Shown here: piece by piece, positions 19,906 through 29,734 of the stretch
How the letters are laid out: every line of letters begins with the position of its first letter
Position numbering within the stretch: the stretch's first letter is position 1
Origin: a virus
Lineage: Duplodnaviria; Caudoviricetes
IMG/VR virus record: IMGVR_UViG_3300028591_000096
Strand: one strand, 5' to 3'
DNA length: 64,000 bases
Program-made: the position numbers and the translations under genes
Notes under the pieces: generated by a model
What the model was told of the DNA's origin: nothing
Database searches by the model: none
Seen by the model: only the letters and a program-made list of their open reading frames with translations

Positions 19906-19931
19906 AAAAGGTGAGAATTTTCTCACCTTTT
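19906..19931. terminator. Bidirectional intrinsic terminator
   Basis: AAAAGGTGAGAA-TT-TTCTCACCTTTT inverted repeat between convergent genes. Confidence 0.8.
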
Positions 19932-21561
19932 ATTTTAATATACCAAGTGCATATACCTGTTTTCTTAATTTACTAGCAAGTTTCTTATACAACGACCTGA
20001 ATTCCTTCAATCTGTCTGGATAATATTGTTTCCATAATGGCCTTAATTGATAATACCCAGCATCCCAGCACATGATATGAAGTTCTGGATGATCATTATC
20101 AAAAGAAAGTCGTTCCTTCATCGAATCAGATAAAAGATGTCGTGCATAATCAATTACATCTTTTGCTTCTTTGCTTAGTTTTTCTCCAACTTTTTCATCA
20201 AGTAATTCGTATGCATATCTATCATCATCATCGAATGTTGTCTTAACCATATCATAGTATTCATATTTGCCAGCAAGCTCCATCATTTTCTTTCTACTCA
20301 TAAAGAAAAATTCATTTTTTATCTTATATTCATATCCTTTCCATGTTGCTGGCTGTATTGCGCTCTGACAACTTGCAGAGTTAAACATGGAATAAACTAT
20401 ACTGTCAGATATAAATTCGGCCCATAATTCATAATTATCTTCAGTTATAACTGGTGCAAGAAACTCATCCTTATTGTTTATCCAATTATTTGTTATAACC
20501 TTTCTTGATGTAAAATTAGCACACACTGGCAAGAAATTTTCCTTTGTTATAGAGAAGCCAGACAATACATTATCTGGTGCTGTGCTCAGGATGTAGCACT
20601 GCTGAAGAGACTTATAAACATTATTACTTGCGTTTACATAGAATCCTATTGCATCTGTTGTTAGCATAGATCCATCTCGTTCACCAACAGTTACAGGATT
20701 TTTAAGTGTAATTGTTGGATAAGTCTTTTTGTTTTTCAATGGTTCTTTGCAGAATTTTCTAAAACTGTTTTTATTATCAATATTATATATTATCTTTGTT
20801 CCAATTTCTTCAATCTTTCCATTCTTTACTTCAATAAGGTTATGTTTGAAATAGTTTTTATTATTACATACACCAGATTTCCATAAAGACAAACTTATAC
20901 CCCATCTGTTTGAACATTTATCAAAATATGATGCATTAAACAAATAACCATCAAGAAAATTAAAAGATTCTAGAAATTGTTTCCTGAATTTCTCATATCC
21001 CGATCCAGACATGAAAACTGAGCTTGAAAATACACATATATTACAATTTGTAAGATTGTAACAATTCTTAATCATCATTATACGATAAAGAAACTGCGAA
21101 AAAAGATTCATTCTAGCATATTTCATATCATCCATGAATGATTGTGTATATGTATTGATTGAAACATCTTTTACCCCATCCTTAAAATCATTAGGAGCTG
21201 CATAAGGTGGATTCATTAGAAATATTATTGGTTTATCGTTAACCAAAGCATCATATAATCTTTGAGGTATGTGTAAACCTAAAAGTGATTTAATAGGATC
21301 GTTGAGAAAATCAAACTGAAATTTCTCAGCTTCTTTATTAGCATCAGATGCATCTATGTCACTTTTATGTAACGTAGATGCATACAAATGCTTAAATTTT
21401 TTAGATTTAGTTAAGTTTCCTATACCCCAAGCTGGATCCCAAACGTAATATTTGTTATACCAGTTTTTTCCAAAATGCTTCTCAAGTACAGTATGTGCAA
21501 AATTAGCAAATAATTCTGGAGTATAGAATTCTCCTTCTGATTTTTTATTTTTCATTAACAT
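19930..21561 (-). CDS. Orphan DNA adenine methyltransferase (gamma-type, with target-recognition domain)
   Basis: GEFYTP, VWDPAWGIGNL (motif I) and MNPPY (motif IV); no nuclease domain seen. Confidence 0.85.
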   Translation of the reverse strand: MLMKNKKSEGEFYTPELFANFAHTVLEKHFGKNWYNKYYVWDPAWGIGNLTKSKKFKHLYASTLHKSDIDASDANKEAEKFQFDFLNDPIKSLLGLHIPQRLYDALVNDKPIIFLMNPPYAAPNDFKDGVKDVSINTYTQSFMDDMKYARMNLFSQFLYRIMMIKNCYNLTNCNICVFSSSVFMSGSGYEKFRKQFLESFNFLDGYLFNASYFDKCSNRWGISLSLWKSGVCNNKNYFKHNLIEVKNGKIEEIGTKIIYNIDNKNSFRKFCKEPLKNKKTYPTITLKNPVTVGERDGSMLTTDAIGFYVNASNNVYKSLQQCYILSTAPDNVLSGFSITKENFLPVCANFTSRKVITNNWINNKDEFLAPVITEDNYELWAEFISDSIVYSMFNSASCQSAIQPATWKGYEYKIKNEFFFMSRKKMMELAGKYEYYDMVKTTFDDDDRYAYELLDEKVGEKLSKEAKDVIDYARHLLSDSMKERLSFDNDHPELHIMCWDAGYYQLRPLWKQYYPDRLKEFRSLYKKLASKLRKQVYALGILK

Positions 21562-22018
21562 GTATTATATTTTGGTTCGATGAACCTCTAAACGCCAAAT
21601 TGATATCAGCGTTATCAAGTTCAAAAGGACCATCTACAACAGTGTCACATTTACTCGCAACATCATATTGACTTTTAGTAAGTGAATCGAACTTATATCC
21701 AGTATAAAGCCATATTGTTTTATCTTCAGATTTCAAGAATCTTTCTTTGAATTTATCAATAAGCTTATTTACCCCTTCAAGATTATTAGGGTCTAATGGT
21801 TCTCCACCTAAAATTGTAAGACCAGAACAATATGTAGGCTCGATCGAGTCCAGAATACGTTCTATAACGTCGTCTGTAAAATCCTTACCATAATTAAAAT
21901 CCCATGCCTGTTTATTAAAACAACCTTTGCAGTGAATTCTGCAACCACTAACGAACACAGATGTACGTACACCTGTGCCGTTAGTTGTAGAACAATATTT
22001 AATATTAGCGTACTTCAT
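21545..22018 (-). CDS. nrdG: Anaerobic ribonucleotide reductase activase (radical SAM)
   Basis: NGTGVRTSVFVSGCRIHCKGCFN, GLTILGGEP, WLYTGY, VDGPF, FRGSSNQ; start at MKYANIK. Confidence 0.95.
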   Translation of the reverse strand: MKYANIKYCSTTNGTGVRTSVFVSGCRIHCKGCFNKQAWDFNYGKDFTDDVIERILDSIEPTYCSGLTILGGEPLDPNNLEGVNKLIDKFKERFLKSEDKTIWLYTGYKFDSLTKSQYDVASKCDTVVDGPFELDNADINLAFRGSSNQNIIHVNEK

Positions 22019-22028
22019 AATCGGTGTG

Positions 22029-22742
22029 TTATTTATTCTCATCAATATCAGTATGTATTACACGATTGTAAATATCATCAAGTCTCCCCTTGTTTGTATT
22101 TCCAGCGTTAACCTTTCCAAGATAACCACAAATACGTGCAGTAACATCTAATGTTTCATCATCATCATTTCCACAATTAGGACAAATGAATTTAAAGTTT
22201 CCATCCTCTGTTTTTATTAAATCGATATCACCTTCATATCCACACTTCTTACATACACCGATTTTTCTGTTAACTTCCGCGTATATAATGTGGTCATTCA
22301 TCCACTGAATGATTTTTATAATAGCCTCTTGATTATTGTTGAGATCTGCTGTTTCGACATAGCTTACAGCACCACCAGAAGATAATGCAAGATACTCTCC
22401 TTCAATCTCAAGTTTCTTGAATGCATCAATTTCCTCACGAGGATCAACATGATAGCTGTTTACAACATAATCTTTATCTGTAATCTTAGGAATAAATCCG
22501 AAATTCTTTCTCAAAGCAAGAGCGAACTTGTATGTCAAAGACTCTTCTGGTGTACCATATATCGCATACTTGATAAACTTACGTTTCTGTTTATCAATTG
22601 TTTTCACGCTGTAAACTCCGTTATCGTTTTCAATATAAACTACTACTTTATTGTTTATTTTTATTTCATCACTTGGATAAAGTCTATTACCAAATAAACT
22701 ACCTTTTTCAAGTGATGAAAACCAAAGATCTTTTGCAGTCAT
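22029..22742 (-). CDS. nrdD: Class III ribonucleotide reductase, C-terminal fragment (Zn ribbon and glycyl-radical domain)
   Basis: YAIYGTPEESLTYKF, YVVNSYHV, GGAVSYVE, CKKCG/CPNCG and TARICGYLG, after about 55 non-NrdD residues. Confidence 0.92.
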   Translation of the reverse strand: MTAKDLWFSSLEKGSLFGNRLYPSDEIKINNKVVVYIENDNGVYSVKTIDKQKRKFIKYAIYGTPEESLTYKFALALRKNFGFIPKITDKDYVVNSYHVDPREEIDAFKKLEIEGEYLALSSGGAVSYVETADLNNNQEAIIKIIQWMNDHIIYAEVNRKIGVCKKCGYEGDIDLIKTEDGNFKFICPNCGNDDDETLDVTARICGYLGKVNAGNTNKGRLDDIYNRVIHTDIDENK

Positions 22743-22743
22743 A

Positions 22744-24510
22744 TTATTTTATTAAAATTACCTTTTCAAAATTTGTACCTAAGTGACTTTTATTTTCTAT
22801 TGTATCAACAATAAATTTTTTGTATTTATGTGTATCATCTACAACAAACAGATAAGCTTTACATTTGAACTTTTCAATACATATGTCAATCCATTCATCA
22901 CATGTCTTATCGACATCGGAATCTCCGTTCCAGTTTTCCTTATCAGAGTATGGTGGACATGTAAACAGACATTCATATGATGTATTCTCATATTCAAATA
23001 TATTATGAGCAATCACAGAAGAATTATGATAATTCATATAATCTATTATGTCATTCGATTCTTTGACATGTGTGTCGTTGATATCGCTACCAATGTATTT
23101 CTTTCCACATAATTCAGTTCCTATCATCCTTCCAGAAAATCCTGAAAACGGATCGAATACTATATCATATTCGTTAAGATATCTTTCTATCAAATTCTTT
23201 GCAACCACTGGACTAAAAACAGAAACCTTTGGTGCTATTTTTGAAACGTTGAATCCATATATAATATCAGAAGGTTTACACGATCCAACATATTTCAATC
23301 TGTTTATCGCCGATTTCTCTATCAATAATGGATCCTTGAAAGCATCATATGGTGATTTAAAACCTTTTCTGTTGGCGTGATAAATTGATTTATGGAAATG
23401 TTTTATGACACCATCGAGAGATTTATCCTTGAAATTTTCATTTGGATATGGAAATTCTATATCTGTCTTGAACAATTTTAGATAGTGTTTGCTATATGTT
23501 TTATTTATATAGTCAAGAATCGGTTTAATTTGCTCGTATCTAAGTATCTCAACTCCGTTATGAAGCATACATTGGTGTTTTGCCTCATATATTTCGTCTT
23601 GTTCTTTCGATCTATCATACGGGTTAATCATTATATCACCGTCAAAAAACTGTTCACCTTTTATTTCTTGAAATTTTCCATTTACTTTAAAATCTGGATA
23701 ATAACGTTTACCTAGAAATTCAAAGAAATAATCAGGTTGATATTGGAAATCAATATCATGATCCGTTAAGTAGATATAATAAGCAAGCTCCCACGAACTA
23801 TCAAAAAAAATGTTTCTATAATTATATGATTGTTGACATTTAACTCTTACATCATGATTTGAAAACGGATGTTCGACTCCATATCTTCTGATACATGTTT
23901 CTTTAATCTTATCTTCTATATCCTTTGATTTTCTTGGATTATCTACACCATATCTTTCAATGTTTGTTTCCTTGATTTTATTTTTTATATCCTCATTTGC
24001 AAATACATTTTTGACTCCGTATCTTTTAATATTTGTCCGTTCTATTTTGTTTTTTACATCTTGTGAAAGGATTGATGCTACAACTCCATACTTTTCAAGA
24101 CATGTTTTCTTTGTTCTATCTTTTTGTTCCTGTCTTGCTGCTGGATGGCAACCATATCTTTCAATGTTTGTAGAACGAACTTTATTAAATATTTCAGATT
24201 TCTCTTCCTTTGTTTTATTTTTCCAGGTTTCTCTAATTTTCTGTTTGTTTGTATAGTGTGGATCGCCGTATCTTTCTAATTTAGTGATCTCTGCTTTTTT
24301 ATTTCTCGCTTCAAAATCAAATCTGTCAATGAAATCCTTCCTTTTACATTTCTTACAAAGTAATGGATCAGAAAGATAAACTGCATATTTGATATCGGTT
24401 TCTCCACATCTTGTACAAACAAACCTTACCTTTTGTTTCTGCTTATATTTCTTAAGATCTTCAAAAGATGTAAAATCTATAGGATTGTCTTGATATAACT
24501 TCTTATGCAT
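22744..24510 (-). CDS. Homing-endonuclease-like PD-(D/E)xK nuclease fused to an amino-methyltransferase, inserted within nrdD
   Basis: CTRCG/CKKC, six T(N/C/K)(I/L)x(R/K)YG repeats, DSSWE..YYPDF..EIKG nuclease, then FDPFSGFSGR and FTCPPY MTase motifs. Confidence 0.8.
   Translation of the reverse strand: MHKKLYQDNPIDFTSFEDLKKYKQKQKVRFVCTRCGETDIKYAVYLSDPLLCKKCKRKDFIDRFDFEARNKKAEITKLERYGDPHYTNKQKIRETWKNKTKEEKSEIFNKVRSTNIERYGCHPAARQEQKDRTKKTCLEKYGVVASILSQDVKNKIERTNIKRYGVKNVFANEDIKNKIKETNIERYGVDNPRKSKDIEDKIKETCIRRYGVEHPFSNHDVRVKCQQSYNYRNIFFDSSWELAYYIYLTDHDIDFQYQPDYFFEFLGKRYYPDFKVNGKFQEIKGEQFFDGDIMINPYDRSKEQDEIYEAKHQCMLHNGVEILRYEQIKPILDYINKTYSKHYLKLFKTDIEFPYPNENFKDKSLDGVIKHFHKSIYHANRKGFKSPYDAFKDPLLIEKSAINRLKYVGSCKPSDIIYGFNVSKIAPKVSVFSPVVAKNLIERYLNEYDIVFDPFSGFSGRMIGTELCGKKYIGSDINDTHVKESNDIIDYMNYHNSSVIAHNIFEYENTSYECLFTCPPYSDKENWNGDSDVDKTCDEWIDICIEKFKCKAYLFVVDDTHKYKKFIVDTIENKSHLGTNFEKVILIK
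23875..24290 (-). repeat. Six degenerate KETNIERYGV-type peptide repeats (phage endonuclease DNA-binding repeats)
   Basis: TKLERYG, TNIERYG, TCLEKYG, TNIKRYG, TNIERYG, TCIRRYG. Confidence 0.75.
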
Positions 24511-27500
24511 CTATCGTAAATTCCTCCTCTCCTGATATTGTGGTTAAATCTTTTTCATCAAACTCTCCTTCTGTAAACCATTGATTTATTCTGTTATTAA
24601 TGTAGGTCATGATTTCTTTACACAGTTTGCGACCATTTTCAGTGGTATTTGATTCACCTATCAAAGCCTGAACCGTTTCGTATAAACCCACATATCCAAG
24701 ACTTACTGTTGGACGAGTTGGATGAGCATCCATAAGATCACCAACTGTTTGATCTGGTTCCATTCTAGCTAAAGCACCATACATCCAAAGTATAGGTGAA
24801 TTCTTAGCTTTGATTTTTCTACATGATTTCACACGCTCTTGCATACCATGTCTACAAACCTCAAGCCACTTATCAAGATTTTCATAAAAATCTATTCCGT
24901 TTTTTCTTGCTTCAAGAGCGACATAAGGAAGGTTTATGGTTATTACACCATTATTCCATCTTCCATAAACAATAGGCTCCTTTATAGTAACCTCAGTGTC
25001 TGTCTTTTTGATAAGCCAACCAGTGTTACCTCTGAAATTAATACAATACTGACCTTCATCATATCCATACTTATATTCTCCATTTGGTACACTATCAAAT
25101 GTTTTAGCTTCTCTAAACTGATCATAAGGATAAGTTCCACCTTCGGTCCAGAAGAATTCTTTATCTATAGGATATGTTTTATCTTCCCAGATAGGACCTA
25201 GCAATGAACGACAATTATGTGATTGAATTCCTGAAACATCGAATCTATCACTTGATGTTGTAACATCATATGAATATTCATCAATATATCCAAGATCTAT
25301 AATATCAGTGACAACATATGGTTTTTCTTTATGCTTTCTATTTAAAACAGAGTAGTTATTCTTTTTCTTTTGACAAACAATATTTTCAACAATTTCATCA
25401 TTTGTTTCAAAATATATGCGATATCGTATTTTGGATAAATCGTTTGATGTATAATGATTCAGTAAAGATTTTGCATTATAGCCAATAGTATTAGCAAGAT
25501 ACATCGTCTGTAATGCAAGTTCTTTGTTTGTAGATCCAACTTCAACTGTATTAAAATGATGTTCAGATTTATGAATATACCCATCAGCATCTATTATTCC
25601 ACCCATAAATGCAACACGAGCTTCTCTTTTGGCATTAATAATAAATGATGGAATATGTCTATCTGCCTTTTTTGTCCCTCCGAAGATTTCGATTAATTTT
25701 TTAGATATATCTTTAATTGAAACATCACCAGAAACAGCTCTAACTTCTTTATAATTACCTTTAACACATCTATACCATTCTTTCACATATGTATCGAGAT
25801 TAAAATATATTTTCACACATTTTTGATATTTTTCTATAATGTCGTCCTCACCTGTCATGGCAAATGTAGATGAAAGCTGTCTATCATAACAGCCATCACA
25901 CATTATTATACCAAGAAGCCAAGCATAATCTGGATCAACATCTATAGAATCAGATGAATATGCAAAGTTAGTTGCTTCAATCTCATCACCAACTTGAAGA
26001 TCACTAACTTCTGTTCTTCCTAACCCTACAACATGTAAAGGGTGATCTGATGTACATTTAAGAGAACGTCCGTTGCTGAGTTTAATAATTTTCCAATCAC
26101 CCTGATCTGAATTTTTGTTCATTCTTTTACATTCAACAAATGAACCAGATGTACTATCATAGATTTCAACTCCGACCAAATTTATATAATAACAATCAGA
26201 AGCTTCCTGCAAGAGTACATCGAAATTATCAGACATTCTTGACCACATTCTTCCGATAGATTCAACATAAACTTCATCGTTGAACTTATATGTAACAACC
26301 TCATTCTTATCAACACATCCCATACACGGTATAATTTGTCCTTGTTTATATTTACGTGTCTGTGACTCAGAAACAATATCAGGTTGCATACGTTTTGATA
26401 TACACTTAGCTGCAAGTTCTGTCAGATAATAATAAGGATCTCCTTTCTTTACGTTTAAACCATCACAAGTCCAATATAACAGTTTTGGGAACAGTGGGCT
26501 GATATAGTTACCAGAAGGATCCTTTACACCCTTTATGCGACGTTTTAGAATCTCTTCAATTATAAGTGCAAAATCATCAAGTTCTTGTTTTGTTCTCGCT
26601 TCACGTAAGCAAAGATTGTTTGATACAAAAGGTGTCTGTCCGTTTGCCGACGAATGACACAATATCTGATATTGATATATCTTAACTCCTTCAGATATTT
26701 CATCACGAACTTTCTTTTCTGTAATAGAATTTAATTTATCTTCTGATAACTGAACACCAATATCATTAAAGTCCTGTAATATTTTTTTGCGAATAATCTT
26801 TCTTGTTTGATCTACATAATGAACAAGATGAATCCATGACATCGTTTGACCACCATATTGTCTTCCAGAAATAAGAAGGGCTATTTGTGCTGCAAGATTA
26901 ACCATTGTTCTAAATGGTGTTTCATCATTAGGTTCAATCTTCGTATCTCCCATAACAAAGCCATTCTTAAACATATCTTCCAGATTATAAAGATCGCAAT
27001 TTATTAATGGCTGAGTAGGACTATAATCAGCATCATGCCAGTGTATTATACCTTCATTATGAGCCTTTATAATCTCTTTTGGAAGAGTTTTATTTGCAAG
27101 AGATTTACACATTATACCAGCAATATAATCTCTTATTGAAGCGTTGTCATCAATATGCTTGTTCGCATTATCACCTCTGAGAGAAGATGTTCCATCTATT
27201 AAAGACAAAATCTTTTCCTCATTTTCGGTATACTTCTTGTTTCTTTTCTTGTTATCTCTGTAAAGTATATATGATTTTGCAACAGCATATTTATTATGTC
27301 TTACAAGTGCCTGTTCAACAAAATCCTGAATATCTTCAACTTTTACTGAGTTAAATCCTGTAAGCTTCTTCTGTACGGTTGATAAAACCTTTTGAATTGC
27401 ATCATCATTCATTTTATCCTCATCACCGACAGTACTGTTAGCTTTCATTATTGCTTTCTCAATTTTATCTAGGCAAAAATCCTGCTCTGATTCGTTTCTT

Positions 27501-27514
27501 TTGATTACTCGCAT
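24503..27514 (-). CDS. nrdD: Class III ribonucleotide reductase, N-terminal fragment (ATP cone and catalytic barrel) containing an intein
   Basis: MRVIKRN ATP cone, IHWHDAD, QYGGQT, NGQTPF, FPKL, MG/CRS, YGRWNNGVITINLP, SLGYVGLYE; ends before YGTP. Confidence 0.92.
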   Translation of the reverse strand: MRVIKRNESEQDFCLDKIEKAIMKANSTVGDEDKMNDDAIQKVLSTVQKKLTGFNSVKVEDIQDFVEQALVRHNKYAVAKSYILYRDNKKRNKKYTENEEKILSLIDGTSSLRGDNANKHIDDNASIRDYIAGIMCKSLANKTLPKEIIKAHNEGIIHWHDADYSPTQPLINCDLYNLEDMFKNGFVMGDTKIEPNDETPFRTMVNLAAQIALLISGRQYGGQTMSWIHLVHYVDQTRKIIRKKILQDFNDIGVQLSEDKLNSITEKKVRDEISEGVKIYQYQILCHSSANGQTPFVSNNLCLREARTKQELDDFALIIEEILKRRIKGVKDPSGNYISPLFPKLLYWTCDGLNVKKGDPYYYLTELAAKCISKRMQPDIVSESQTRKYKQGQIIPCMGCVDKNEVVTYKFNDEVYVESIGRMWSRMSDNFDVLLQEASDCYYINLVGVEIYDSTSGSFVECKRMNKNSDQGDWKIIKLSNGRSLKCTSDHPLHVVGLGRTEVSDLQVGDEIEATNFAYSSDSIDVDPDYAWLLGIIMCDGCYDRQLSSTFAMTGEDDIIEKYQKCVKIYFNLDTYVKEWYRCVKGNYKEVRAVSGDVSIKDISKKLIEIFGGTKKADRHIPSFIINAKREARVAFMGGIIDADGYIHKSEHHFNTVEVGSTNKELALQTMYLANTIGYNAKSLLNHYTSNDLSKIRYRIYFETNDEIVENIVCQKKKNNYSVLNRKHKEKPYVVTDIIDLGYIDEYSYDVTTSSDRFDVSGIQSHNCRSLLGPIWEDKTYPIDKEFFWTEGGTYPYDQFREAKTFDSVPNGEYKYGYDEGQYCINFRGNTGWLIKKTDTEVTIKEPIVYGRWNNGVITINLPYVALEARKNGIDFYENLDKWLEVCRHGMQERVKSCRKIKAKNSPILWMYGALARMEPDQTVGDLMDAHPTRPTVSLGYVGLYETVQALIGESNTTENGRKLCKEIMTYINNRINQWFTEGEFDEKDLTTISGEEEFTIDA
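25214..26317 (-). mobile_element. 368-aa intein with LAGLIDADG homing endonuclease, inserted immediately before the thiyl-radical Cys
   Basis: PCMG|CVDKNE...CTSDHP...LLGIIMCDG...FMGGIIDADG...YSYDVTT...QSHN|CRSLL. Confidence 0.93.
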
Positions 27515-27639
27515 TATGTTTATTAATTGGTTTTTTAGAATTAATTGTGAAATAAATCTCACCATTTTCAAGTTTACTGTGAGATATTTATTCATGCTTT
27601 TGTAACTTATGTTCTGATAGGGACTTCCATACAATGCTA

Positions 27640-27654
27640 TGCAAATATACAACT
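27640..27654 (-). promoter_or_regulatory. Bacteroidota -7 box AGTTGTATATTTGCA upstream of the nrdD operon
   Basis: Identical 15-mer, about 125 nt upstream of the nrdD ATG. Confidence 0.8.
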
Positions 27655-27697
27655 TTTAATCTAATTTGAAAACCGTTACTCGAATAAATATGTTTTC

Positions 27698-27706
27698 AGA
27701 TAAATA
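27698..27706 (+). promoter_or_regulatory. Late promoter AGATAAATA
   Basis: 25 nt upstream of the ATG at 27732. Confidence 0.7.
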
Positions 27707-27731
27707 GTAAAAATAAGAACACTCTTATCTG

Positions 27732-28184
27732 ATGGCAGATAATATAACATTTCTGGAAGAAAACTGGGAGGAAAACAAAGAATATCTAAACTGGCCAGGA
27801 TTACAATATCTTTGGTACACAAAGGTTAAACCAGCCATTTATCAAAATATTAGCACAATAAAAGGTAGAATAGATGACGAAAATTGGTATATAACATATG
27901 ATGCTAGTACTGGAGAAGTATACATTACCGTAAACGAAGATTCATCCACATTCTACTTTGATCAAGATGGAAGCTGTGGATGTATACAAGAATTTAACGG
28001 TATGCTTCAAGTTATAACAAACAGGGATTTCTCTCTGATGGTTGATGGTTTTATAGACGATCACATAGGTGCAATAGGAAAGAATTCTGATCAAATAGGA
28101 GATGCAACTGGCAAATTATATGTCAATTTTGAAAGAAACTATGAATATGCTGATCCGCACGGTGATGAAACATATGGAGAATAA
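27732..28184 (+). CDS. Hypothetical acidic protein (late)
   Basis: 150-aa ORF with its own late promoter and terminator. Confidence 0.7.
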   Translation: MADNITFLEENWEENKEYLNWPGLQYLWYTKVKPAIYQNISTIKGRIDDENWYITYDASTGEVYITVNEDSSTFYFDQDGSCGCIQEFNGMLQVITNRDFSLMVDGFIDDHIGAIGKNSDQIGDATGKLYVNFERNYEYADPHGDETYGE

Positions 28185-28212
28185 AAAAGAGGAACAAATA
28201 AGTTCCTCTTTT
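28185..28212. terminator. Bidirectional intrinsic terminator
   Basis: AAAAGAGGAAC-AAATAA-GTTCCTCTTTT. Confidence 0.8.
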
Positions 28213-28216
28213 ATTT

Positions 28217-29734
28217 TTATAGTTTAAAGTCCTGATATCTTTTATTTTTCTCTTCCTTATCTGTTATTTTAACAAGTGAAGCCTCATCACCTTTCTTTAT
28301 AGTATAATCTTTACCTTCTGCTGGATCAATCAATTTAACATCTTGAACAGAATTTATTCTATCTCCAAAATCTTTAAGGAAATCTTCGTATTCTTCAAGT
28401 GCAGCATCCTGTAATATTGTTTTAATTGATTCTACTTTAGCATAGTAAAGTTCAAGAGCAATTTTACTAACTTCATTTACCCCTTTACCTGGAATAGTAT
28501 AAATATCACCATCTTTCATCTTTACTTTATAAAGATCGTAATGTTTATCCATTTTGTAGTATATATCCCTTATCTGATCTCTTGCTGTTCTTGAGTTGAA
28601 GTCCTTAGCTATTTCAGCAGGTTCTCCAGAATTATATCCAGGAATATTAAGAATGAAATTAGCATATCCTACTTTATATGGGGAAAAACTTCCATATTTA
28701 TATGTAGGTTTAGGCAATGGTTTTAAAGATGGTTCCTTTGGTCTATTTGGTTGTACAGTTGTCACATTAAGGAATTTATTCTGTTGTGGAACTTCTATCT
28801 TTTCCCCTCTTATTACTTCAACCTTTCCGTCAACTTTTGGTTCCTCCAATGTATCAAGAACAACAGAAGATGCCATTACCTCGTTCATGGTATCACAAAG
28901 TTCTTTTCTTGTGTTCAGTGCTTCGTTATATGCTTGTTTTTGTGTTGGTGCTGACCAATAACACATTTCACCATCATCAAAATAGAACTTATATTTAGGA
29001 CAACCTTGATTTATCTTCTCATTCAATTTATTATAGCATGGCTTTGTAGTGTATGCTATAATCATATTTGCCATTGTTTTTGCATTTTCCTCAGAATCAG
29101 ATCTTACTCTAAGTATTTCATCATTAGATAAAGTAACCCAATAAGGAACGAATATAGCGTTCATTGCTATATTCTTGGCTTCATTTGGATCTATACTTGA
29201 GTCAGCTGTACTGGAATCTTTCGTCAGCGCAGCAACTCCAGCTATAGCCCCAGCTCCAGCAGCACCACCTAAAACAGATTTAGATAATCTCTTAAACCAT
29301 CCTTCCTTGTTTTTATCCGAATAAGATGAAGATTTTCCTTTATGTGGGGTAGCAAGATAATCAACCCAAAATCTTGGATTCAATCTGTTAAGCCATGAAT
29401 TCTTATCCTCATATTTTTCCCTAATTCTATGAGACAATGCCCCTAGCCCAGCAAGAAGTACAGCAGGCCAACATATAATTGTAGTGATAGCTAAACTTGG
29501 AATGGATTGAAGCATTCCACTTATACCTCCTACTCTTGAACCTCCTGTTCTATCAAATCTTCCACCAGATCCATAATAAGAATGAGATTCATTTATAGAC
29601 TGAAACATAATATCAGATCCGTATCTTGACACAAGACTTTCAAGAATCATCATATCATATTCTTCTATATTATTTTTCTCTATAGATTCTGTTGTATATG
29701 TAGGTTTTATAATCATATATTTCTGATAAATCAT
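28217..29734 (-). CDS. Probable internal virion protein with two hydrophobic segments and four beta-beta-alpha repeats (probable start 29716)
   Basis: ILES and INES motifs; late promoter at 29740-29748 lies too close to the first ATG. Confidence 0.6.
   Translation of the reverse strand: MIYQKYMIIKPTYTTESIEKNNIEEYDMMILESLVSRYGSDIMFQSINESHSYYGSGGRFDRTGGSRVGGISGMLQSIPSLAITTIICWPAVLLAGLGALSHRIREKYEDKNSWLNRLNPRFWVDYLATPHKGKSSSYSDKNKEGWFKRLSKSVLGGAAGAGAIAGVAALTKDSSTADSSIDPNEAKNIAMNAIFVPYWVTLSNDEILRVRSDSEENAKTMANMIIAYTTKPCYNKLNEKINQGCPKYKFYFDDGEMCYWSAPTQKQAYNEALNTRKELCDTMNEVMASSVVLDTLEEPKVDGKVEVIRGEKIEVPQQNKFLNVTTVQPNRPKEPSLKPLPKPTYKYGSFSPYKVGYANFILNIPGYNSGEPAEIAKDFNSRTARDQIRDIYYKMDKHYDLYKVKMKDGDIYTIPGKGVNEVSKIALELYYAKVESIKTILQDAALEEYEDFLKDFGDRINSVQDVKLIDPAEGKDYTIKKGDEASLVKITDKEEKNKRYQDFKL

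Follow-up and report, generated by a model that had tools for sequence, protein, structure and literature searches.

The 64,000-nt window analyzed here, from the Caudoviricetes record IMGVR_UViG_3300028591_000096 (a phage on a 166-kb contig), contains a class III ribonucleotide reductase gene, nrdD, that is cut in two by an inserted gene. nrdD-N, an inserted open reading frame (ORF), nrdD-C and the activase gene nrdG lie consecutively on the minus strand, with overlapping or 1-nt junctions. nrdD-N (24503..27514) encodes 1003 aa, comprising an ATP-cone (aa 1–90), the first part of the NrdD barrel, an intein, further NrdD sequence up to Trp979 and a 24-aa tail. The inserted ORF (22744..24510) is free-standing and encodes 588 aa. 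nrdD-C (22029..22742, 237 aa) has a core (22029..22568) with the last barrel elements, the zinc ribbon (22173–22253) and the glycyl-radical motif RICGYLG (22116–22136). nrdG (21545..22045) encodes a radical S-adenosylmethionine (SAM) activase with a Fer4_12 domain, and its true start is perhaps the ATG at 22018.

At the first junction (24510–24503), the start of the inserted ORF overlaps the stop of nrdD-N (ATGCATAA); at the second (22746–22740), a single T separates the ORF stop from the nrdD-C start (TAA-T-ATG). An original prediction from the bare sequence had described both junctions and the cutting of nrdD by an inserted gene; the ORFs are as it described, and unsplit alleles of 801 aa confirm the contiguous form. 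No terminator was found within the operon, and a megablast search with the locus gave no match in INPHARED. No direct repeats flank the insert, and there is thus no sign of transposition or site-specific excision. Among relatives, the ORF spacings range from −26 to +78 nt, with the C-piece ATG 0–14 nt past the ORF stop. Fusion of the three ORFs by read-through or frameshifting was considered, and is ruled out by this variation in spacing.

The two pieces were aligned with the solved NrdD structures 9d3x (S. thermophilus) and 1h78 (T4). The N piece aligns with 9d3x through residue 552 and the C piece starts again at 553, which places the break between adjacent residues, in line with the original prediction. 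Pfam assigned an ATP-cone and NRDD positions 1–267 plus a second stretch to the N piece, and NRDD 400–562 plus Gly_radical to the C piece (NRDD E-values 1.3e-81 and 1.2e-45). The N piece holds Cys173 (NCD) and the finger-loop Cys (MGC/CRSLL), and its start, MRVIKRNESEQ, is shared with the unsplit relative at locus L016. The C piece holds the zinc ribbon (C164/C167/C187/C190) and RICGYLG, in which G206 aligns with T4 position 580. The class III NrdD and NrdG feature set (ATP-cone, barrel, finger-loop Cys, ribbon, glycyl motif and activase) is therefore complete, and the NrdD part of it is spread over two ORFs.

The original prediction recognized the NrdD homology of the N half and overlooked a 368-aa LAGLIDADG intein (25214..26317, minus strand; Pfam LAGLIDADG_3, Hom_end and Intein_splicing, and inspection of the translation). 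It sits directly before the finger-loop (thiyl-radical) Cys. Its first residues are CVDK, block B reads TSDH, two LAGLIDADG motifs are present, and it ends SHN, followed by the Cys at +1 (CRSLL). Natural intein-free alleles occur (P0079, P0082 and P0084), the site reading PCMGCRSLL in P0079, for example; the element thus has the features of a LAGLIDADG intein and is missing in frame from related alleles. Other alleles carry an intein at a second site, before Cys173. Counting the inserted ORF, at least three kinds of mobile element have invaded nrdD, at three sites.

The 588-aa ORF consists of four parts: a Cys4 zinc ribbon, DUF7487 helical repeats, a nuclease motif and a C-terminal methyltransferase domain. 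It matches DUF7487 (PF24308) at 87.8 bits, against a gathering cut-off of 27, and PHROG families 3339 and 12131, both annotated 'homing endonuclease', which agrees with the original call of a nuclease gene. The conserved SWEL...YPDF...EIKG is a PD-(D/E)XK/Vsr-like nuclease motif. An AlphaFold2 (AF2) model of the ORF had a predicted local distance difference test score (pLDDT) of 78, and a Foldseek search with it returned class I SAM methyltransferase folds (E 1e-6). The methyltransferase domain spans aa 434–588, with motif I DPFSGFSGR and an unusual motif IV, CPPY. A nuclease and a methyltransferase on one chain recall type IIG restriction enzymes. The domain could serve in protection of the phage's own DNA or in target recognition. 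The repeat array (23867–24131) is made of four 69-nt direct repeats, of 23 aa each and RYG-type.

Orthologs of the ORF occupy the same site in the related loci L001, L006, L007 and L008, where they share 51–62% identity with one another and with the window's copy and are all intact; across split alleles the same-site ORFs range from 460 to 590 aa. The nuclease-plus-methyltransferase part has more than 1300 homologs, of which the best 120 are at least 50% identical over near full length, and some of these homologs co-occur on a single jumbo-sized contig. DUF7487-family ORFs are also seen between the reductase and activase genes: two extra ones lie between nrdD-C and nrdG in L003 (6598–11652), and one of 582 aa lies between nrdD and nrdG in L017 (7570–9318).

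Split and unsplit relatives

Homologs of the C piece were searched for with a restriction on length. About 20 clusters of 229–255 aa cover the whole piece, including its first 57 residues, at 53–97% identity. The order nrdD-N, DUF7487 ORF, nrdD-C, nrdG recurs in L001 (a 323-kb contig), L003, L006, L007 and L008, in neighborhoods that differ, and the split layout is found in at least six further diverged phage contigs. The place of nrdG after nrdD-C is kept in L001, L006 and L008. Recurrence in independent assemblies from ENA, Logan and IMG/VR excludes misassembly, evidence of which the original prediction had listed among the findings that would refute it.

No frameshift or stop was found in the nrdD pieces of the relatives examined. 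Over the split alleles, the NrdD core shows nonsynonymous divergence (pN) of 0.06–0.31 with saturated synonymous divergence (pS), i.e. strong purifying selection; dating of the insertion by dN/dS was prevented by the same saturation. Conservation of the split form down to 53% identity, together with selection on the core, supports the earlier suggestion that the glycyl radical and the thiyl Cys reside on separate chains.

A phage that reads TAG as Gln (L010–L013; 3006–8723) carries nrdD in three pieces, of 265, 438 and 240 aa. Each gap holds a DUF7487 ORF or a frameshifted remnant. The remnant is in the first gap, and the flanking pieces there keep an acidic tail and a head of ~50 aa nevertheless. 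Judged from these sequences, the split seems to outlive the endonuclease. The head after the second break in L010 matches the window's head over its first 13 residues only (hhalign E 0.07), a resemblance too short to establish homology between the two modules.

Many NrdD proteins of 801 aa cross the site unbroken (W-KKEDxIM-YAIYGTPEES), and against these the break is exact, so that the alignment with uninterrupted relatives proposed earlier bears out the original prediction. The junction is also uninterrupted in L016, the C part of which is 92% identical to the window's. The window's C core is 99% identical to that of unsplit alleles, and in one case the C core of a split allele is the same as that of an unsplit one. 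In a C-core tree of 99 rows, split alleles are scattered, with 17 state changes compared with 18.5 for shuffled labels. The scatter of split alleles and the near-identity of unsplit cores show that the insertion is a presence/absence polymorphism, as expected of a homing element.

Unsplit alleles lack any equivalent of ~72 nt upstream of the inserted ORF and of ~170 nt downstream. The original statement that there is no room for an intron core was thus not strictly correct; it is the coding evidence given below, not space, that speaks against a ribozyme. Just upstream of the break, the flank is recoded (24584..24607, minus strand), reading TYINNRIN where unsplit alleles have QHLNDKLQ. In comparisons with alleles that differ at only 27–41 of 611 positions, seven mismatches fall at positions 602–609, against 0–3 per 50 aa in neighboring bins. 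The recoded stretch is likely, on this pattern, to be a co-converted or cleavage-immune target region. Together with the near-identical alleles with and without the insert and the family copies elsewhere, it indirectly suggests that the ORF may cleave the empty allele and home.

Other arrangements were seen at related loci. In L038 (2765–6317), from another phage, a lone head-like ORF of 65 aa follows a 272-aa ORF, and ~500 nt of DNA without called genes precede a 206-aa NrdD-C piece; no Rfam match was found. In L014 (1701–4245), a 339-aa nrdD C-terminal ORF (P0010) begins in the LPYVALEA region, behind an ORF of 441 aa for which Pfam gave no hits, and P0010 may represent a different break point in the nrdD family. 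Directly past nrdG in the window lies a 543-aa ORF (19930–21561, minus strand) with FYTP, DPAWGIG and NPPY motifs, resembling an N6-adenine DNA methyltransferase, for which no Pfam or PHROG match was found. An ORF of 542 aa occupies this place in L001.

Tail and head peptides at the break

The extra sequence on either side of the inserted ORF is translated as part of the reductase pieces. NrdD-N ends in a C-terminal tail of 24 aa (24506..24577, minus strand) that has a net charge of −8, ends EFTIDA and is lacking in unsplit NrdD. Across alleles the tail is 17–26 aa long with a net charge of −3 to −8, and is acidic in all seven loci compared. In six of the seven its end is related (EFEID, FELDE, EFELDIE, AEFN); the tail of L008 ends INGDH. 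A Shine–Dalgarno explanation of the acidic tail was rejected, since the GGAGG before the ORF, mentioned in the original prediction, is unconserved in relatives.

NrdD-C begins with an N-terminal head (22569..22742, minus strand), which is 58 aa by the cut used, extends ~50–55 aa beyond native NrdD and has a net charge of +4. Heads of other alleles, ~55 aa long with net charges from −1 to +5, share the start M-K-x-x-D-L-W and the hairpin pattern IKIKGKxVxYIEKxxxxYxVxL. The head is conserved in 18 clusters, with its length, start codon and hydrophobic pattern kept at head identities of 25–60%. In an AF2 model of the lone C piece, head residues 1–50 form a helix followed by four strands with a pLDDT of ~88; the reductase part, modeled with its partner absent, is below 50 over much of its length.

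In no allele is the reading frame of tail or head interrupted. At the three codon positions, pairwise identity is 0.53/0.62/0.42 in the head, 0.58/0.56/0.40 in the tail and 0.71/0.83/0.45 in the core. Amino-acid patterns are kept while synonymous sites have reached saturation. The open frame and the codon periodicity identify both as protein-coding sequence, not intron RNA. A stretch of 192 nt encoding the head folds better than shuffled sequences (z −2.5). An ~12-bp hairpin, which may have a role in translation, is seen in the head-coding region (22664–22720, minus strand), ~20 nt past the nrdD-C start; at this place an allele of 97% identity has PND for PSD, a change that may break a stem pair.

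A profile of the head was searched against 1.84 billion representatives and found 13 proteins. The seven fetched comprise four NrdD-C heads, two short head-like ORFs, one of which adjoins an nrdD piece, and one spurious repeat protein; none of the seven places a head on another gene family.

Relatives that lack the ORF carry tail and head fused in frame. In P0158 the insert is 71 aa, with ...GFIEVD joined directly to KNTWDE; in P0162, which has the same synteny as the split L006, it is 52 aa. Shorter remnants, of 10 and 6 residues, are found at the break site in other relatives. This series can be read in two ways: as stepwise loss of the endonuclease gene, or as an older fused module that was later invaded by the ORF. 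Under either reading, the tail and head look like parts of a single domain.

A proposed two-chain reductase and its alternatives

We hypothesize that the locus encodes a two-chain class III reductase of the kind known from the NrdA/mobE system of phage Aeh1, held together by docking peptides that were carried in by the insertion. The sequence comparisons make this the probable explanation. The two-piece NrdD very probably works, because the split form recurs intact in many related phages. A mobile cassette, made of a free-standing DUF7487-type homing endonuclease gene with ~70 nt and ~170 nt of its own coding flanks, would have entered nrdD at a variable linker on the protein surface (native W-KKEDxIN-Y). 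A single transcript would carry nrdD-N, the endonuclease gene, nrdD-C and nrdG as tightly coupled ORFs, each translated separately. NrdD-N would first splice out its intein, restoring the finger-loop Cys, and then bind non-covalently to NrdD-C, which would contribute the last barrel elements, the zinc ribbon and the glycyl radical site; NrdG would activate the assembled enzyme. One small cassette-borne domain, with the acidic NrdD-N tail and the folded, mostly basic NrdD-C head as its halves, would hold or orient the fragments and make the insertion nearly neutral.

The most serious alternative keeps the working split enzyme and denies the peptides a role: tail and head would be neutral leftovers of the insertion, and the fragments would assemble through the NrdD barrel alone. 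Both peptides evolve much faster than the NrdD core, and relatives with only 6–10 extra residues at the site exist, as this account would have it. Neutral debris would not, however, be expected to keep the length, start, hydrophobic pattern and predicted fold of the head at the divergence noted above, nor the acidity and end motif of the tail, and relatives without the endonuclease gene retain the fused module in frame; we regard it as a distinctly minor possibility. Less probable again is that nrdD has been inactivated, the insertion being tolerated in a dispensable reductase with its pieces decaying. T4 nrdD is non-essential in aerobic culture, and unsplit alleles circulate beside split ones, both of which would suit such a decay. 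It is at odds with the retention of every catalytic motif, with the low pN at saturated pS over many split lineages, with the absence of frameshifts and stops described above and with the adjacent nrdG, and it appears improbable.

The remaining alternatives would rejoin the halves. That the ~2-kb insert is an unrecognized self-splicing intron with an internal ORF, its mRNA being spliced to a single nrdD frame, is very unlikely. In its favor, the ~240 nt of insert outside the ORF roughly match a group I core in size, RNA of the head region forms a somewhat better fold than shuffled sequences, and small group I introns abound in related gut jumbo phages (PMC12880540). Against this, a search of positions 21000–28500 at E up to 10 matched neither Intron_gpI nor any other Rfam family; at gathering score the whole window gave no Rfam intron, and none was found in six related loci; a positive control, the T4 nrdD intron, was found at 105 bits. 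That intron, moreover, lies at the equivalent of residues 237–289, not 611–618. The flanks keep their reading frame, their start and stop positions are conserved and third codon positions decay, and the fused forms translate flank sequence as protein. We consider it least likely of all that the halves are ligated by protein trans-splicing, with tail and head acting as a split intein of atypical form. The layout resembles fractured genes with Vsr-like endonucleases (PMC2677866), and in a structure search independent of Foldseek all five matches covering the head were inteins, at low Z (3.4–4.6; 1dq3, 5bkh, 4o1s, 7qsu, 2jnq): PI-PfuI (1dq3, Z 4.6, root mean square deviation 1.9 over 50 residues), a PolII mini-intein, two VMA inteins and KlbA. 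The charge pattern, with an acidic N part and a basic C part, also resembles that of split inteins. The first tail residue, however, varies (F, N, K, R or V) and is not a conserved Cys or Ser, and a TxxH block is missing; the head meets native sequence at N-Y, without a +1 nucleophile; and tail and head total ~75 aa, far under the size of a Hint domain. Alignment of 17 heads with nine inteins of the same gene family by hhalign gave a probability of 4%, and Foldseek with the C-piece model returned NrdD chains only, with nothing covering the head. Descent of the head from a dead intein is a lead, not a result; an intein origin was proposed for the Aeh1 tails as well (Crona et al., PMC3045599). 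The view in the original prediction that the halves are apparently unspliced agrees with the lack of an intron family here and in the related loci and of intein splice residues at the junction.

Several points weigh against the two-chain enzyme with docking peptides. One head has a net charge of −1. Head dN/dS ranges from 0.18 to 1.45, and saturation of synonymous sites leaves a rough measure only of selection on these two short peptides. The existence of near-identical unsplit alleles means that some insertions are recent, and individual alleles could be tolerated, not functional. The nuclease domain of the inserted ORF is assigned tentatively, from its motif and a weak atlas lead.

A broader idea is that the DUF7487 cassette carries a portable two-piece docking domain, with an acidic strand ahead of its stop codon and a folded basic head behind it, possibly a catalytically dead intein remnant, and that this domain re-assembles any protein that the cassette cuts. 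We regard this as a speculative extension that is rather unlikely. If it were correct, the fused P0158 and P0162 would show tail and head to be a single domain, and the second break in L010, with an acidic tail followed by a similar head, would show the module travelling with the endonuclease. Introns and inteins would then be joined by a third general means by which a selfish element neutralizes its own insertion.

A two-chain reductase would extend to a new enzyme class a trick experimentally shown for one other phage reductase. With the radical and the thiyl Cys on separate polypeptides, it would provide a natural test of long-range radical chemistry across a broken backbone. The single Aeh1 case of 'tails as antidote to fragmentation' would become a family with dozens of natural alleles, and with matched unsplit, split and fused alleles the idea could be tested simply by co-expression. 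The folded head and acidic tail might find use as a small, naturally occurring tag for split-protein complementation. In annotation, pieces of nrdD from large gut phages should be neither labeled pseudogenes nor automatically taken as intron-split.

Comparison with known systems

The closest parallel is the genes-in-pieces class Ia reductase of Aeh1 (nrdA-a/mobE/nrdA-b; Friedrich 2007; Crona 2011, PMC3045599), whose oppositely charged tails arrived with the insertion and are essential for activity (PMC3045599). In both systems a free-standing endonuclease gene breaks the catalytic subunit within the ten-stranded barrel and places active-site residues on two chains, and unique oppositely charged tails stand at the break. 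RNA or protein splicing is absent in Aeh1 and, judged in silico, probably absent here. Two of the features that define the Aeh1 type are found here, namely a gene contiguous in relatives that is cut by an endonuclease ORF, and tails lacking in contiguous homologs; the analogy drawn in the original prediction extends to the cassette-borne, oppositely charged tails. The systems differ in several respects. Aeh1 NrdA is class Ia, whereas here a class III enzyme has its stable radical site (Gly) and thiyl Cys on different chains. The Aeh1 endonuclease is of the HNH type, whereas the present one is DUF7487/PD-(D/E)XK-like with a methyltransferase domain. Charge polarity is reversed, and the C-side extension is a folded domain of ~55 aa. 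Aeh1 is a single, biochemically tested case; here there are dozens of diverged alleles and fused forms without the endonuclease gene, known from sequence.

In fractured genes (Dassa 2009, PMC2677866), a free-standing endonuclease gene of the GIY-YIG or Vsr-like kind lies between the parts of a split intein; ribonucleotide reductases are often the hosts, and NrdA and NrdJ are listed, not NrdD (PMC2677866). The order of Gene-N plus extension, endonuclease gene, and extension plus gene-C is the same here, as is the Vsr/PD-(D/E)XK-like motif. The extensions differ in lacking all splice residues and in being too short for a Hint domain. T4 nrdD (sunY), with a group I intron encoding I-TevII, and mobC between nrdD and nrdG mark the same gene pair as a homing-endonuclease hotspot, and mobC is paralleled by the DUF7487-family ORFs between nrdD and nrdG in L003 and L017. 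T4 nrdD differs in having a recognizable ribozyme that restores one reading frame, and in its site (237–289).

Autonomous glycyl-radical 'spare part' proteins, GrcA/YfiD and T4 Y06I, replace the damaged domain of pyruvate formate-lyase. They likewise carry the glycyl-radical segment on a polypeptide apart from the catalytic barrel, whereas the split described here is constitutive and takes in barrel elements and the zinc ribbon.

A 2013 listing held six split nrdD genes among cultured phages. In the gut jumbo 'Jug' phages, nrdD is fragmented in 95 of 104 genomes, the inserts encode endonucleases or intein domains, and one nrdD junction showed no detected mRNA splicing, according to the portions of that study drawn on here (Sci Adv 2026, PMC12880540). 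The relatives of the window lie on contigs of 320–390 kb. In the same portions, the breaks are taken as intron or endonuclease interruptions, and conserved docking peptides and fused forms are not described (PMC12880540). New to the present case are the class III context, the conserved, putative docking head with its predicted fold, the matched unsplit, split and fused alleles, and the methyltransferase-bearing endonuclease family.

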